Notes: generated from the letters alone by a model not told the origin. A stretch of DNA of 7,144 nt from a virus (IMGVR_UViG_2703718811_000004), one strand, 5' to 3'. Shown: positions 1 to 4,975, counted from the stretch's first letter. Program-made: numbers and translations.

Positions 1-2179
1 TCATAGTGTGCTGCCGCCTTACCCTTAGCCCTTCACGTACCGGTGCTGTCGCGTTCTGCGCATCCGGTGACGGCAGACCACGACGAACCATTTCACCCTC
101 GAGTGTTTCCCCCTGGCGACCAGCGGCGTTTTCCGGTGCCGGAGCTTGTCCTTTCTGGAAACTCTGGCCCTTAACCTCACCGGTTGTGGTAAAACGACCA
201 CCACGTCCGGCCTGATTCTCATCCGGCGTACGCGCCACCTCTCCCGGTAACGGATATCCCTGTCCGGGATGAATATCGCCGGGAGCGGGCAGGCGTGGAC
301 GCTCAGTTAACTCCTGTGCTGTCGGACCGGCATCACCTTCAGCCATCTGTGAACGTACAAGCTCCTCCGCCGTCGGCGCATTGCCACGGGCAAGGCGGGC
401 CTGTACCTCCGTATCATCCCCCGTGAAACCACGGAATCGCGGGTCACGCATGAACGCGGGCTGCTCCATCGGGTCAGCATCAGCAATACGCTCTCCGTCA
501 GCCAGGGTGTTAATGGTTTCCGTTGCCACATCTTCAGAGAACGCAGGATTATCCATTTCAACGGCATACTGATTCTCGCCTTTCTTCACTACGGACGGTT
601 TCAGGCCGGTGGCGGCGGCATTACGGAAAACATCACTCCCCATGGCGCTTTTCTCATCCGTGAAATAACGGTTGTCCGGGCGCACCTTTTCAATGCGTTC
701 CGCTGGTCTGGACGCACCATTCCCGTTAATTTCAATGCGGACTTCATTCGGGTCCCGGAACCGCACCGTCGGGTAAATGCTCCCGTTACCATCCTCCGCA
801 TTTTCAGGCTGTGACTGTGCTTCCGGCGTCACTTCCTGTTGCGGGGCTGCGTCGTCCTGCTGCACGGTTTCAGCATCACGCATGGCGGTTTCTTCTGCGG
901 CCTGACGTCTGCCACGATATCCGGCAACCGCACCGGATGGAGCCCCCATCGCAGCACCAAAGGCTGCACCTTCGATCGTTGCGTCAGCCACGCCCTCCCA
1001 CGGTGACACATCCATTCCGGCGGTCTCACGCAATGCCGTGTTTTCCTGATAGCGTGAATAGCCGCCCTGCGCCGCATTAATCGCCCCCTGTTCCGTGGCA
1101 TTTCTGACAATGCCGCTTTTAACGGTCTTCGCTGTGCCTCGTGTCACCAGATTAAACAGTTGTGCGTCACCCAGTTTTGCCGCCATGGCATTCACAGCCA
1201 GCAATTCAGGATCGGTTGCCAGCTGCGCGCGCACCTCATCGGCAACACGCTCTTTTGCCAGATCCATTTTCTGGCGATCAGTAAGCTGTGCGTGCTGCGG
1301 GTCGGCGTCAATGGACAAAAACGTCTGCTGAAATTTCGGTGACTGCGCCAGCTCAGAGTAATCCGCATTAAGAACAGCATCTGCTGCCGCCATTGCACTC
1401 TGCCCCTGTGCACTGGCTGTGGAATGGGTGATCAGGCCCGCCTGGAATAAATCCGGCATTTTTTTATCGACAGCTTCTGCTGCCAGTGCCGTGGCTCTTT
1501 CCGGCTGCATCCCTGCCGCGATGTATTTTTTCTCCAGCCCGGCGGTCAGCATTTTTCGCAGTGTGACATCACCCACCTTTTTAGCCACACCGCCAACAAC
1601 CATATCAGGTACAAGCGCACCAATCAGGTTTACACCCTTCGCCACCCAGACCGCAGAATCATCATAGCCTTCGGTCATCGGCGTATTCAGCGCACGAACT
1701 GCACCCGGCGACATCTTACCGGTCAGCCATTCATCAGTGGCTTCAGCACCATCACTGACAGCCTTACCGGTTGCCTTCAGACCTTTACCGACAGTATCAG
1801 TAACCGCGTTTTTGCCATCAGGCAGGGTATCGATGACCTCATCAGCCCCCCTGCTGCCACCGGCAAAAATATCCTGCACAGTTGCGACACCCGGCAGCCC
1901 CATACGGCTGAACTCATTTAAAATACGCGCCCCTGTTTTTACCGGGCTCTGAATCATCGCATCACCGAGTCCACGGGCCATTTCCCCTGTTCCCCGGACG
2001 GACTGGGCGAAACCTTTACCCATTGTTGGCAATACATCGCCCAGGCTGAACGACGTACTGTTATCCTTCCAGCGATTCGGATCAGAGAAAAATGCTTCAT
2101 AGCTGTCAGTTTCGCCGGGTTGCTGAATGTTCAGGCTGTTACGATTCTGGTTGCGGGAATTTCTCACCACACGCTGCAT
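1..2179 (-). CDS. Large hypothetical protein, 5' portion only (over 725 codons in window; stop codon lies beyond position 1). Ala/Gly/Asp/Glu-rich with a polar Ser/Asn/Gln-rich N-terminus. Function unknown.
   Basis: Manual translation of the minus-strand frame whose codons are plus-strand triplets starting at positions congruent to 2 mod 3 (e.g. 2-4, 1079-1081, 2177-2179): no stop codon from 2314 down to 1. The ORF track omits it because it has no in-window stop. The five short minus-strand ORFs listed for 25-1413 are all one alternative frame broken by stops. Candidate starts: ATG 2177-2179 (no good SD) or in-frame GTG 2201-2203 preceded by GGTGAGAG. Start of translation: MQRVVRNSRNQNRNSLNIQQPGETDSYEAFFSDPNRWKDNSTSFSLGDVLPTMGKGFAQSV... 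No motif I can assign to a family. Confidence 0.75.
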   Translation of the reverse strand, partial: MQRVVRNSRNQNRNSLNIQQPGETDSYEAFFSDPNRWKDNSTSFSLGDVLPTMGKGFAQSVRGTGEMARGLGDAMIQSPVKTGARILNEFSRMGLPGVATVQDIFAGGSRGADEVIDTLPDGKNAVTDTVGKGLKATGKAVSDGAEATDEWLTGKMSPGAVRALNTPMTEGYDDSAVWVAKGVNLIGALVPDMVVGGVAKKVGDVTLRKMLTAGLEKKYIAAGMQPERATALAAEAVDKKMPDLFQAGLITHSTASAQGQSAMAAADAVLNADYSELAQSPKFQQTFLSIDADPQHAQLTDRQKMDLAKERVADEVRAQLATDPELLAVNAMAAKLGDAQLFNLVTRGTAKTVKSGIVRNATEQGAINAAQGGYSRYQENTALRETAGMDVSPWEGVADATIEGAAFGAAMGAPSGAVAGYRGRRQAAEETAMRDAETVQQDDAAPQQEVTPEAQSQPENAEDGNGSIYPTVRFRDPNEVRIEINGNGASRPAERIEKVRPDNRYFTDEKSAMGSDVFRNAAATGLKPSVVKKGENQYAVEMDNPAFSEDVATETINTLADGERIADADPMEQPAFMRDPRFRGFTGDDTEVQARLARGNAPTAEELVRSQMAEGDAGPTAQELTERPRLPAPGDIHPGQGYPLPGEVARTPDENQAGRGGRFTTTGEVKGQSFQKGQAPAPENAAGRQGETLEGEMVRRGLPSPDAQNATAPVREGLRVRRQHTM

Positions 2180-2314
2180 ATACCGGAGAATTTTTTCACT
2201 CACACTCTCACCACAAAAAAGAACAATGTGACTGTGCTGTGTCTTCAGCGACAGAAGGATGACGGAGAACGCTTCCGATAACCAACACGGCTGGCGTTCT
2301 CCGCAAAAAATAAA

Positions 2315-3517
2315 TTACCAGCCGACAGACATACCCGCAGCAACACCTGAACCGTTCTGGGTATCCCATGAAGCATTCAAACGTACAGCAGAATTTTCAG
2401 TGGTGCGGAAGTGCATACCTGCTGCGATAGCCTGCTCATCACGGTAGTTACTTGCAGCCATACCAAAGGAGTACGTTTTACCCTCAACAACAGGAATGGC
2501 AGTCATCGCCATTGCTCCTGCAATACCTGCATCTGCACGTTTACGGTTTTTCTCCACCTCATCACGTAACTGACGGAATTGCTGATTAGTACTACGCTCC
2601 AGGGTACTGACCCGGTTATCTGTGTAGGTATTAGCAGACTTCAGTGTCTGTGCATCACCCTGAATACGGGCATTCTCTTCTGCAATACGATAGCGCTCTA
2701 ACTGACCATAGGTTGCGGCATCCGCAGCCTGAACACCATCACGAAGCCCACCAATTACACGATTCCCCACATTAACTTCATCGGGGCGAGTGGTCTGAGA
2801 GTTAGCCCCTACAGCAACACTGTTCGTATGGTTTGCAATGGCGTTGTAACCGACAGCAGTGGCGTTTTCTCCGCCTGCCGTTGCCCCGCCACCAACCTGA
2901 GTTTTACCGGTGCCCAGAGATGACAGACGGGCGTGAATATCTGTTACATCTGCAGCAGAAAGACCAGTGTCAATAGTGGCTCCATATTGCACAGCCTTCA
3001 TTTTAATTTCATAAATATATTCACTGATTTCAGGAATATGTCTTGAATATGTTTTTCCATCAGCGCCTACAGTCGAGACAACTCCTTCGCCATCTGCACT
3101 AAACAGAATTTGCTTGGTTTTTGTGTTTACAAAATAAGCTGTCTCATTCGCGTAATCATAATAAGAGACGATGTCTCCCCTTGGAGCAGCTAACTCGGTA
3201 TCTGTCAGGCCAGCCTTACCATAATCAATTAAGGTATATTTCAAATATTTACCGGAAACAGCGTCTATATTTAATGAGGTTGGTGTATTCCCGTCAAGAG
3301 AAATAACCTTACCATTCTCAAGCTTAATTAATGGATATCCATCTTGTTTATATACACCGATACCTTTCAAGAAATCCGCATGCTTTATTGCATTACTATT
3401 CAGAGTTTCAGGTGTAACGGAATAACCACTGGCATACGCCCCGACAGAAAATACCGACAGGCTTAATGCCGGCATTAAAGCCAACAATAGCTTGCTTGCC
3501 TTTTTCATGATTTTCAT
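2315..3517 (-). CDS. Trimeric autotransporter adhesin (YadA/Eib family), 400 aa: signal peptide, atypical N-terminal domain, short YadA-like head/neck repeats, coiled-coil stalk, C-terminal YadA membrane anchor.
   Basis: ORF-track protein. N-terminus MKIMKKASKLLLALMPALSLSVFSVGAYA is a Sec-type signal peptide. Head-repeat-like motifs ATAVGYNAIANHTNSVAVGANSQTT and neck-like DEVNVGNRVIGGLRDGVQAADAATYGQLE. Charged heptad-like stalk (RYRIAEENARIQGDAQTLK...RQLRDEVEKNRKRADAG). C-terminus AGIAGAMAMTAIP...YSFGMAASNYRDEQAIAAGMHFR...GVAAGMSVGW matches the YadA anchor pattern ending in GxSVGW. SD-like AAGGG about 8 nt upstream of ATG 3517. Family assignment is from memory of YadA/Eib sequences. Confidence 0.9.
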   Translation of the reverse strand: MKIMKKASKLLLALMPALSLSVFSVGAYASGYSVTPETLNSNAIKHADFLKGIGVYKQDGYPLIKLENGKVISLDGNTPTSLNIDAVSGKYLKYTLIDYGKAGLTDTELAAPRGDIVSYYDYANETAYFVNTKTKQILFSADGEGVVSTVGADGKTYSRHIPEISEYIYEIKMKAVQYGATIDTGLSAADVTDIHARLSSLGTGKTQVGGGATAGGENATAVGYNAIANHTNSVAVGANSQTTRPDEVNVGNRVIGGLRDGVQAADAATYGQLERYRIAEENARIQGDAQTLKSANTYTDNRVSTLERSTNQQFRQLRDEVEKNRKRADAGIAGAMAMTAIPVVEGKTYSFGMAASNYRDEQAIAAGMHFRTTENSAVRLNASWDTQNGSGVAAGMSVGW

Positions 3518-3780
3518 GATGTGTACCCTTATGTTAAATCATGTTATAAATATGTTGACATTCGGAACGCAAATGTCTTCAGGGATACTACTCACAATAA
3601 CAAGGCAAATAAAATATTAAAATCAATGAGTTAAGAAAAATTAACAATTAAAATCACAAGGATGCAATACGCATCAAAAACTTCCCCTAAATAACACCAG
3701 TATTACTCAGAAAAAACAAAACATTTTCTGTAGTTATTATTTACCATTGATAAATATTACCTCTCTCTGTCAGCCTGCAT
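3518..3780 (-). promoter_or_regulatory. AT-rich upstream regulatory region of the adhesin gene (putative promoter and 5'UTR; plausible target for nucleoid-protein silencing).
   Basis: Very AT-rich non-coding stretch (e.g. caaggcaaataaaatattaaaatcaatgagttaagaaaaattaacaattaaaatcacaag) directly upstream of the adhesin start. Candidate sigma70-like elements on the minus strand are TTGCGT then about 19 nt then TATAAC, ending about 25 nt before the ATG. No ORF of 60 aa or more on either strand. Promoter position not verified. Confidence 0.3.
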
Positions 3781-3837
3781 TGTATAAAACATACTCTGCA
3801 AACAGGTGCCATATCGGCTGAACCTCAGCAACCAGTT

Positions 3838-3859
3838 GACGGGGACTTTCGTCCCCGTC
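3838..3859 (-). other. Perfect stem-loop (9-bp GC-rich stem; loop GAAA on the minus-strand transcript) 10 nt downstream of the Hok-like stop codon.
   Basis: Plus strand gacggggac-tttc-gtccccgtc (3838-3859). On the minus-strand RNA the loop is GAAA, a GNRA-type tetraloop. No U-tract follows on the minus strand, so it is more likely a structural or processing element than a canonical terminator. Confidence 0.5.
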
Positions 3860-3868
3860 GCGGTTTTC

Positions 3869-4009
3869 CTACTGCTTACACTGTAAGAACGCCGCAAACT
3901 CCGCTCCCCACAAATTCAGCCGGAACTCACACAGTGAACCGTGCAACATCCAGATAGTGAAGATAACCGTCATACAAATTGTGACGGTGATAAGCGATTT
4001 TTGCGACAT
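3869..4009 (-). CDS. Hok/Gef-family type I toxin-like small membrane peptide, 46 aa.
   Basis: Manual translation from ATG (plus 4007-4009) to TAG (plus 3869-3871): MSQKSLITVTICMTVIFTIWMLHGSLCEFRLNLWGAEFAAFLQCKQ. It has a single N-terminal hydrophobic helix followed by the family-typical SLCE motif and a C-terminal E-x-AAF-x-x-C-K pattern (compare Hok/HokA-type peptides recalled from memory). Strong SD AAGGAG (plus 4019-4024) 9 nt upstream of the ATG. Below the ORF track's 60-aa threshold. Confidence 0.7.
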   Translation of the reverse strand: MSQKSLITVTICMTVIFTIWMLHGSLCEFRLNLWGAEFAAFLQCKQ

Positions 4010-4048
4010 AGCGCTTGACTCCTTTTACAGAGAGGCGCTAATCTTCTA

Positions 4049-4108
4049 CTTGCTTAAGGTATGATGGTCAGGGCCTCGGGTTAACGTTAAGTTGACTCGG
4101 GGCCTTTC
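4049..4108 (+). ncRNA. Candidate Sok-like antisense RNA (about 60 nt), complementary to the leader of the hok-like mRNA.
   Basis: Plus-strand promoter-like elements: -35 TTGACT (4015-4020, overlapping the hok SD on the opposite strand), 16-nt spacer, -10 GCTAAT (4037-4042), predicted start near 4049. Imperfect hairpin ggcctcggg (4072-4080) / ctcggggcc (4096-4104) with two G-U pairs, followed by TTT (4105-4107). Entirely sequence-based inference. Confidence 0.3.
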
Positions 4109-4163
4109 CACATCAGGCCTTCAGGTTCTCCCTCCAGCCATCAGCCGAAAGGCACCCACGCAT

Positions 4164-4192
4164 AATTTACGGTTTTTGCCCTGTACGGGCAA
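4164..4192 (-). promoter_or_regulatory. Candidate promoter of the hok-like transcript.
   Basis: Minus strand: -35 TTGCCC (plus 4187-4192), 17-nt spacer, -10 TAAATT (plus 4164-4169). The predicted start near 4156 coincides with the 5' fold-back element. Weak match to consensus. Confidence 0.3.
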
Positions 4193-4217
4193 TAAAAAAC
4201 CCGCCATCACAGCGGGT
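4191..4217 (-). terminator. Rho-independent terminator downstream of the lom-family gene.
   Basis: Minus-strand RNA: stem ACCCGC / GCGGGU (plus 4199-4204 paired with 4212-4217), 7-nt loop, then UUUUUAUU (complement of plus 4191-4198). Begins 24 nt after the lom stop codon (4241-4243). Confidence 0.6.
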
Positions 4218-4240
4218 AGTAAACGGTTACCGGATACAGG

Positions 4241-4975
4241 TCAGAATTTCAGGCCAATGCCAGCAGTAACGCCACTCGTGCGCCAGTCGCCAGAGCCGGA
4301 ACCTTCGTAAGCCACATCCAGTGTAACACTCTCATTCAGGTTAAACTGTGCACCTGCAGCCCACGCAAGGGAGGTTTTTTTCGTGCTGTTGCTTTCAGAA
4401 AATCCGCCACTACTGTTAATATTGTCCTTAATTTTCAGGTCAGCGCTAACTTTAGCAACGCCCATCCCTGCCATCGCATATAAACTCATGTACTGATTAA
4501 CCCGCCATGAAGGCCCCGCTAACAGACTCCAGTAATTCGCCCTGATATCCGTTCTGGCAGAAGCTGCCGGATTCTTAATCTTCCTGGTATGATCGGCTGA
4601 CTGCACATCAATAAATGTCTGTGAGTTAGTGAGAGAACGCGTCCATGTAAAAGAGGTGATAACGCCAAAATCATCCGTTATCTCGTAGCGATACCTGATA
4701 TTAATGCCCTGTGGATTTTTATCCTTGCCTTCATATCCACTGACCCGACCATCTGTATATTCGCCCAATGAAGAAAAGTAGTTTCTGTTGACGAAATGAC
4801 TGAAAGTCTCCCTGTTATGAGCAGTCGCATCCTTTACAAAATCCTTCAGTCCCGGAAACTGAAAGTGCGCATACCCCAGAGAAATTGTATGGTTTCCTTC
4901 TGCTGCATGTGCAGATAAATTTACACAGGCAATCCCGGAGATTGCACACACAACCAGTGTTGCTATACTCTTCAT
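4241..4975 (-). CDS. lom: Lom/Ail/PagC (OmpX) family outer-membrane beta-barrel protein, 244 aa.
   Basis: ORF-track protein with signal peptide MKSIATLVVCAISGIACVNLSAHA. C-terminus VAYEGSGSGDWRTSGVTAGIGLKF closely matches lambda Lom's C-terminal AYEGSGSGDWRTDGFIVGVGYKF (from memory), with a terminal aromatic residue. SD AGGA about 6 nt upstream of the ATG. Longer than lambda Lom (about 206 aa), so probably has extended loops. Confidence 0.9.
   Translation of the reverse strand: MKSIATLVVCAISGIACVNLSAHAAEGNHTISLGYAHFQFPGLKDFVKDATAHNRETFSHFVNRNYFSSLGEYTDGRVSGYEGKDKNPQGINIRYRYEITDDFGVITSFTWTRSLTNSQTFIDVQSADHTRKIKNPAASARTDIRANYWSLLAGPSWRVNQYMSLYAMAGMGVAKVSADLKIKDNINSSGGFSESNSTKKTSLAWAAGAQFNLNESVTLDVAYEGSGSGDWRTSGVTAGIGLKF

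Follow-up and report, generated by a model that had tools for sequence, protein, structure and literature searches.

The window analyzed here is a 7,144-nucleotide stretch of viral DNA (IMGVR_UViG_2703718811_000004), numbered from its first letter. Between the coordinates listed in Table 1 it carries, on the minus strand, a short hok-like open reading frame with a predicted promoter and leader and, on the plus strand opposite that leader, a predicted Sok-like antisense RNA with a promoter of its own. The 46-amino-acid product of the open reading frame (ORF) matches the Hok family in Pfam (PF01848; 33.2 bits against a cut-off of 22) and in phrog_251 (E = 2.8e-24), and RefSeq annotates it as a Hok/Gef family protein. 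The closest K-12 toxin is HokA, with 45% identity, whereas identity to HokC is only 27%. HokA is also the best NCBIfam match (NF007290, an equivalog model), at 38.4 bits and below the cut-off of 89. By analogy with its family, the 46-residue HokA-like protein would be a membrane toxin.

Table 1. Elements of the hok/sok-type locus in window coordinates, with the basis on which each was placed
Feature	Position	Strand	Details	Basis
Hok-like ORF	3869..4009	-	46 aa, MSQKSLITVTICMTVIFTIWMLHGSLCEFRLNLWGAEFAAFLQCKQ	Pfam, phrog and RefSeq Hok/Gef annotation
hok ATG	4009-4007	-		Sequence
hok Shine-Dalgarno (SD) AAGGAG	4019..4024	-	9 nt upstream of ATG	
Predicted hok mRNA	3800..4157	-	~358 nt	Folds, homolog conservation and span of the Rfam model
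Predicted hok promoter	4164..4192	-	-35 TTGCCC 4192-4187, 17 nt, -10 TAAATT 4169-4164	
tac-like 5' element	4157-4141	-	Pairs with fbi-like element	Minimum free energy (MFE) fold; conserved in homologs
fbi-like 3' element	3821-3804	-	Pairs with tac-like element	MFE fold; conserved in homologs
ucb-like box	4110-4100	-	GGAAAGGCCCC; pairs with 5' end	3'-truncated fold
3' stem-loop of hok mRNA	3860-3837	-		Predicted
-35 of Sok-like promoter	4015..4020	+	TTGACT; overlaps hok SD by 2 nt	Same box as published p24B_1 -35
Most likely -10 of Sok-like promoter	4039..4044	+	TAATCT; covered by published -10 box CGCTAACCT	Conservation
Predicted Sok-like antisense RNA	4052..4110	+	~56-62 nt; 5' end 4051-4054, 3' end 4107-4113	Fold and SokC alignment
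Single-stranded 5' tail of Sok-like RNA	4052-4069	+		RNAfold
Hairpin	4070..4106	+	16 bp, four G·U pairs; terminator-like stem; complement of hok mRNA target hairpin	
24B_1	4082..4101	+	20 nt, TAACGTTAAGTTGACTCGGG	Exact match in window and at HM208303 45711-45692 (Φ24B)

The position of the hok promoter is inferred from sequence. G4157, at the 5' end of the predicted mRNA, lies 7 nt downstream of the proposed -10; TTGCC and TA-ATT are conserved in homologs, and homology among cassettes begins at or just inside this promoter, whichever genes flank it. Immediately next to the predicted -35 (4187-4192) lies the intrinsic terminator of a lom-like gene, with its stem at 4217-4199 and a T-run to about 4193. 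In predicted folds, the full-length hok mRNA closes on itself, the MFE structure pairing 4157-4141 with 3804-3821, and the start of hok is buried: GGAG pairs with CUCU at 4032-4029 and GCGCUA (4014-4009, including the A of AUG) pairs with UAGCGC at 4040-4035, within a local hairpin spanning 4040-4009. This predicted combination of 5'/3' fold-back and buried start resembles the mRNAs of hokC and R1 hok. When the 3' end is truncated in silico, the 5' end switches to 4110-4100, opening the target hairpin.

For the antisense RNA, the original prediction had proposed a plus-strand promoter made up of TTGACT at 4015-4020, a 16-nt spacer and GCTAAT at 4037-4042, with the -35 lying over the SD of hok. 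All of these elements are present (a script on the window sequence returns the spacer as CCTTTTACAGAGAGGC), and TTGACT indeed overlaps AAGGAG (4024-4019 on the minus strand), just as the -35 of K-12 sokC, TTGACC, overlaps the hok SD. The -10, however, is better placed 2 nt rightward, at TAATCT, 18 nt from TTGACT. Among homologous sok-region variants, the block GAGGCGCTAACCT is present in 58 of 58 and fixes TAACCT, at window position 4039-4044, in every one; the homolog equivalent of GCTAAT is GCTAAC, without the key final T. We therefore assign the -10 to TAAYCT rather than to GCTAAT. Most homologs read TTGCTC, 17 nt and TAACCT, and the Stx-phage group reads TTGACT, 18 nt and TAACCT; the TTG of the -35 is retained in 58 of the 59 sok-region variants. 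The C-to-T change at window position 4042, which turns TAACCT into TAATCT and GCTAAC into GCTAAT, is unique to the window among these 59. Compared with curated sokC of K-12, TAATCT has in common with the CACTCT found upstream of sokC a T-A-n-n-n-T pattern, and the window -10 is offset from the sokC one by about 3 nt, counted from the GAGGC block. By consensus, each of the two candidate -10 hexamers is weak, which counts against a Sok promoter, and a simple consensus promoter scan listed neither hexamer pair; support for the promoter thus comes from conservation and not from a consensus score.

Conservation of these blocks could also be read without a functional plus-strand gene, as the outcome of constraints on the hok mRNA only, any plus-strand reads then being pervasive antisense or decay noise. 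The weak -10 is in keeping with such a reading, as is the double duty of two conserved stretches: GGTTAGCGCC supplies the 5' arm of the hairpin in which the hok start is buried, and GGAAAGGCCCC is also the ucb-like box. Yet TTG in the -35 and ACCT in the -10 are conserved even though both are unpaired in the predicted full-length hok mRNA fold, so mRNA structure does not explain their conservation.

The transcript had been predicted to run to roughly 60 nt and to end at an imperfect hairpin followed by TTT, and the folds and the alignment to SokC reproduce this picture. RNAfold of 4050-4110 on the plus strand pairs 4070-4085 with 4091-4106, giving a 16-bp stem that runs into UUU at 4105-4107 and leaves the 5' tail unpaired. 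At -29.5 kcal/mol (z = -5.4), this fold was matched in stability by none of 200 shuffles. Transferring the SokC ends by alignment predicts a transcript from about 4054 to 4113, again roughly 60 nt, and the family covariance model scores positions 4053-4110 (+) at 74.5 bits. Across homologs, the upper stem varies in sequence while its shape is kept (GUUAAC/GUUGAC, AAACA/UGUUU and GUUGAAC/GUUUAAC). A structure-fitted covariance-model alignment, made at a stricter threshold that excludes reverse-strand matches and used in place of a plain MAFFT alignment, has 92.5% of its cells paired and four pairs changed on both sides, with a covariation score reached by none of 500 shuffles; this evidence is moderate, as the alignment is biased towards the structure and compares closely related sequences. 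Indels put the upper stem out of register in the plain MAFFT alignment, so that the RNAalifold consensus obtained from it was weak (-3.3 kcal/mol). Two observations count against a Sok-type RNA: the U-run after the hairpin is only 3 nt, and an ARNold search by the authors who described the Φ24B RNA 24B_1 (see below) found no intrinsic terminator.

The strongest strand-specific signal is the difference in predicted hairpin energy between the two strands. Over the 59 variants, the mean is -23.1 kcal/mol in the sok sense against -13.7 kcal/mol in the hok sense; in 58 of them the hairpin is more stable when read as sok. The greater stability on the plus strand arises from conserved G·U pairs, which become A·C mismatches on the hok strand; a plus-strand advantage of about 9 kcal/mol speaks against conservation for the sake of the hok mRNA only. 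The single exception is a decayed copy on Escherichia albertii plasmid pEA5_1 (L020), in which the hok ORF is interrupted and both the Sok hairpin and the ucb-like box have degenerated. Such joint loss would be expected of a toxin and an antisense RNA that are retained or lost as a pair.

The predicted RNA resembles SokC and the prototype Sok of plasmid R1 in being a cis-antisense RNA of about 60 nt, transcribed from a promoter with its -35 over the hok SD, with a 5' tail, one long hairpin and a short U-run. With SokC of K-12 it has in common the base of the hairpin, GGCCTCGGGTT...ACTCGGGGC-TTTC, also given as GCCUCGGGUU...ACUCGGGGC. An Rfam search for sok had been suggested. At gathering thresholds there was no match in the window; a permissive search found RF01794 at 4157-3996 on the minus strand, over the full model length and in the correct relative orientation (E = 7.4e-6), at 33.9 bits, below the gathering score of 59 and far from the 118.3 bits of the K-12 locus. 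The minus-strand match is no contradiction, because the sokC control gives the same opposite-strand relation: curated sokC lies on the plus strand (L262, 553-611) and its RF01794 match on the minus strand (654-502). The RF01794 model, named "sok antitoxin," is built in the sense of the hok mRNA and covers the whole 157-nt leader. Annotation based on it would place "sok" on the wrong strand and with the wrong length. Since the locus fails the Rfam gathering score and the HokA equivalog cut-off and has no mok (see below), we class it as a divergent hok/sok variant rather than a standard member of the kind. K-12 hokA, the locus of the closest toxin, has a mokA pseudogene and is separated from its leader by IS150, so it offers no sokA for comparison.

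Stx2 prophages of this kind already have one described hok/sok-type locus, hokW-sokW of Sakai prophage 5. SokW has experimentally shown antitoxin activity, partly dependent on RNase III and Hfq, and is lost after mitomycin C; hokW-sokW affects the timing of lysis and has a role in lysis and phage release (PMC8621323, Takada et al. 2021). We considered whether the window locus is hokW-sokW itself and rejected this: HokW is a different protein of 51 residues that starts MKQQKAM and is encoded at a separate locus, and the 30-nt probe YO-597 (PMC8621323) had no match in the window within 3 mismatches. Stx2 prophages would then hold a second Hok-type system besides hokW-sokW, which bears on the induction of Shiga-toxin phages.

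A plus-strand small RNA from exactly the 4070-4106 hairpin has already been sequenced, in Φ24B lysogens, and published under a different interpretation as 24B_1. The 20-mer takes in the loop, the uppermost part of the 5' arm and the greater part of the 3' arm. A ligation-based small-RNA library prepared 80 min after mitomycin C yielded it as 2223 identical reads (PMC4426718); libraries of this type are strand-specific and capture RNAs with a 5' monophosphate. The published promoter p24B_1 (-35 TTGACT, -10 CGCTAACCT) is the Sok-like promoter of the window, and the precursor hairpin is identical. A single defined 20-mer with this many reads is atypical of noise, and the element is homologous to a curated Sok RNA; with the strand bias and the unpaired promoter motifs added, an origin of the conservation in hok mRNA constraints only appears very improbable. 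We conclude that the plus-strand RNA exists and is most plausibly the Sok-type antidote RNA belonging to an unannotated Hok toxin gene in Shiga-toxin phages. The Sok-type arrangement proposed for the locus is borne out by the Hok/Gef ORF on the opposite strand, the alignment to SokC, the hairpin favored on the plus strand and the small RNA of the lysogens.

Taken as a whole, window positions 3800 to 4192 are likely (with a probability of roughly 80%) to form a hok/sok-type type I toxin-antitoxin (TA) cassette with a Sok-type antisense RNA of about 60 nt, the antitoxin role being assigned by analogy with the family. Of this, the present analysis or earlier publications establish the sequence elements and how they are conserved, the bias of the hairpin towards one strand, the homology to SokC, the in vivo plus-strand RNA and in vitro binding to Hfq. 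Lysogens should contain a Sok antitoxin, yet the reads of 24B_1 and its RT-PCR product were found only after induction and were absent in uninduced lysogens, which counts against the Sok reading.

The 24B_1 literature (PMC4426718, PMC10732415) describes a trans-acting analogue of a microRNA with an "80-nt precursor." None of four 24B_1 publications (2015, 2017, 2023, 2025) mentions hok/sok or a TA locus at this site, and full-text literature searches returned no paper linking 24B_1 to hok/sok or to an antitoxin. On that account, the plus-strand transcript would be mainly an ~80-nt precursor of 24B_1, which would repress d_ant and sdhB through limited complementarity, promote lysogeny and lower ATP, and the overlap with hok would be incidental. 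The 2223 identical 20-nt reads are compatible with it, and the mature 20-mer shifts an sdhB 5' fragment in vitro, although binding stays below 10% at 100 nM. The precursor length of 80 nt is an assumption, running from the predicted start at about 4053 to a C-rich stretch at about 4133, against a 3' end near 4107-4113 by SokC homology. The RT-PCR on which the 80-nt form rests is not strand-specific, because it was primed with random hexamers and the region lies fully under the hok mRNA leader. With eukaryotic or herpesvirus-type microRNAs, 24B_1 has only its size and its hairpin origin in common. Hfq binds the precursor made in vitro (Kd of 25 nM), a parallel to SokW, whose activity depends in part on Hfq and RNase III.

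Genetic data form the other part of the case for trans action: the Δ24B_1 mutant shows less lysogeny, faster induction and lower survival and is complemented by plasmid, while pUC18_24B_1 gives opposite effects and a drop in ATP. From its homology arms, the Δ24B_1 deletion corresponds to window positions 4021-4208; it removes the Sok-like gene, the hok promoter, the whole leader and part of the hok SD and leaves the hok ORF. Half of the lom terminator is also lost, and transcription from lom may read into the remaining hok ORF in the mutant. By its 2015 primers, pUC18_24B1 carries 565 bp (L021, 507-1071), the whole cassette including the hok ORF, its promoter and fbi. The 2023 paper (PMC10732415) describes pUC18_24B_1 as "the 189-nt region," compared with the 565 bp given by the primers in PMC4426718. 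As both the deletion and the plasmid affect or carry hok, this genetics cannot separate the RNA from Hok, and the phenotypes, including the ATP drop, are not assignable to the 20-mer. Hok-type toxins depolarize the membrane and lower ATP. By analogy, the reported drop in ATP is what a leaky membrane toxin would cause. Complementation of Δ24B_1 in trans by pUC18_24B1 counts against the Sok reading, as it cannot reflect antisense pairing when the target leader is deleted. The element is moreover conserved together with hok in P2-like and lambda-like prophages and on plasmids, which may count against the microRNA account. We consider it unlikely that the transcript serves mainly as a trans-acting precursor. 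For a decade, 24B_1 has been promoted as the first functional microRNA-size RNA in bacteria, and its hok/sok context changes that reading.

The cassette differs from hokC/mokC in having no mok that overlaps hok: all three frames are closed in the window from the hairpin to the hok SD, and where mokC has its ATG the alignment shows ATA, followed by an early stop. The comparison covered 87 unique cassettes with 59 unique sok regions, collected from genomes of E. coli and one of Salmonella, from plasmids and from IMG/VR contigs. A conserved mok starting from ATG 4113 or GTG 4111 was rejected, as its frame and end are too variable; ORFs from these conserved start codons overlap hok in 27 of 87 cassettes, end 1 to 36 nt upstream of it in 40 and end earlier in 20. 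The leader ORF of the window has 21 codons, from GTG 4111 to TAG 4047-4045, stops 36 nt before the hok ATG and lies fully within the span of the Sok-like RNA. A ribosome terminating at this stop could melt the hairpin that hides the hok start, so that the leader ORF might substitute for mok; poorly conserved as the ORF is, we offer this as a hypothesis only.

A missing mok might also mean that the cassette is a decaying relic, in which, after the loss of mok, translation of Hok has ceased and the Sok-like RNA survives without a function. The ATA at the canonical mok start with its early stop, and leader ORFs conserved neither in frame nor in length, are what such decay could leave behind. Against this stands the toxin gene itself, which is intact at 46 amino acids in 83 of the 87 unique cassettes despite many amino acid differences and keeps the pattern C...W..H.S.CE.R...AAFL.C and the strong SD AAGGAG. 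The cassette is also spread over several prophage types and plasmids and occurs in tandem, and the one truly decayed copy, that of pEA5_1, looks quite unlike the others. It is therefore highly doubtful that the locus is a relic.

In the prototype from plasmid R1, hok translation is coupled to that of mok, which Sok blocks (PMC5488031). With no mok ORF, this canonical step cannot be assumed for the hok/sok-type cassette of the window, and we propose a mechanism that does without it. Full-length hok mRNA would be kept inert by tac/fbi pairing of its two ends together with the local hairpin over the hok SD and AUG. Trimming from the 3' end would move the 5' end to the ucb-like box and expose the target. 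The single-stranded 5' tail of the Sok-like RNA could then nucleate pairing with the leader, at hok mRNA positions +45 to +106, and the resulting duplex would block activation or translation and, by analogy with known systems, be cut by RNase III. Because no mok overlaps hok, repression would have to proceed through decay triggered by the duplex, through blocking of the leader ORF (GTG 4111) or through blocking of leader refolding. More broadly, a widespread mok-less hok/sok subfamily that escapes Rfam-based annotation raises the question of how Sok represses hok without mok.

24B_1 itself would most simply be a 5'-monophosphate cleavage product of the Sok-like RNA or of its duplex with hok mRNA. 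In the hairpin, the ends of the 20-mer (4081/4082 and 4101/4102) do not face each other, which argues against release by a single staggered cut; we infer that cutting of an intermolecular duplex fits better than Dicer-like processing. It is conceivable, if rather improbable, that the RNA has two functions, serving as a cis antitoxin from whose duplex with hok mRNA RNase III, during prophage induction, releases a stable 20-nt 24B_1 that acts in trans on phage or host mRNAs. In that case, a type I antitoxin would give rise to a bacterial small interfering-like RNA, and toxin release would be coupled through it to the lysis-lysogeny decision.

A prophage of E. coli ST866 matches the region at 100% identity, and the Stx-converting phages 933W, VT2-Sakai (Sp5) and Φ24B match it at 97.7 to 98.9%. 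The locus lies between lom and L0129/vb_24B_43, and hok/sok is unannotated in the records of these three phages. In a sensitive search, the element was matched in 1,750 of 5,426 complete E. coli genomes, with homology typically covering window positions 3805-4177; extended to the predicted hok -35 at 4192, this makes a cassette of about 385 bp. Other copies lie beside ogr in P2-like prophages, in the gap between J and the tail-fiber gene of a lambda-like prophage, at further chromosomal sites and on plasmids. Given these varied flanks, the cassette acts as a mobile module complete in itself, a moron of Stx-converting and other prophages.

A two-block pattern on viral contigs was used to find further cassettes. 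Some single viral contigs hold two complete, non-identical cassettes in tandem (at about 4282 and 5002 in L160 and about 5509 and 5962 in L245), and L018 has a partial second copy at its left end. A scan of genome contigs with the 17-mer GATGTRRAAAGGCCCCG proved unspecific, giving chance matches in unrelated phyla; the real loci among the matches listed were those of Salmonella (L085) and of an 857-bp contig labelled Xanthomonas pisi DSM 18956 (L042). The latter does contain the enterobacterial cassette (nhmmer E = 4e-99) and is probably an assembly contaminant.

Directly downstream of the hok cassette, a stretch of about 1.6 kb (window positions 2213-3795) is absent from 933W and Φ24B and contains a gene for a YadA-like trimeric autotransporter of 400 amino acids (2315-3517, minus strand). 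In 933W and Φ24B, L0129/vb_24B_43 directly adjoins the cassette, and window positions 2149-2212 are a remnant matching the start of vb_24B_43. At the junction 2149-2152, the window is without positions 1258-4449 of the near-identical ST866 prophage (L001). That segment holds five small hypothetical ORFs that correspond by position and length to L0129-L0133 of 933W. Identity to the ST866 prophage also stops after window position 6767.
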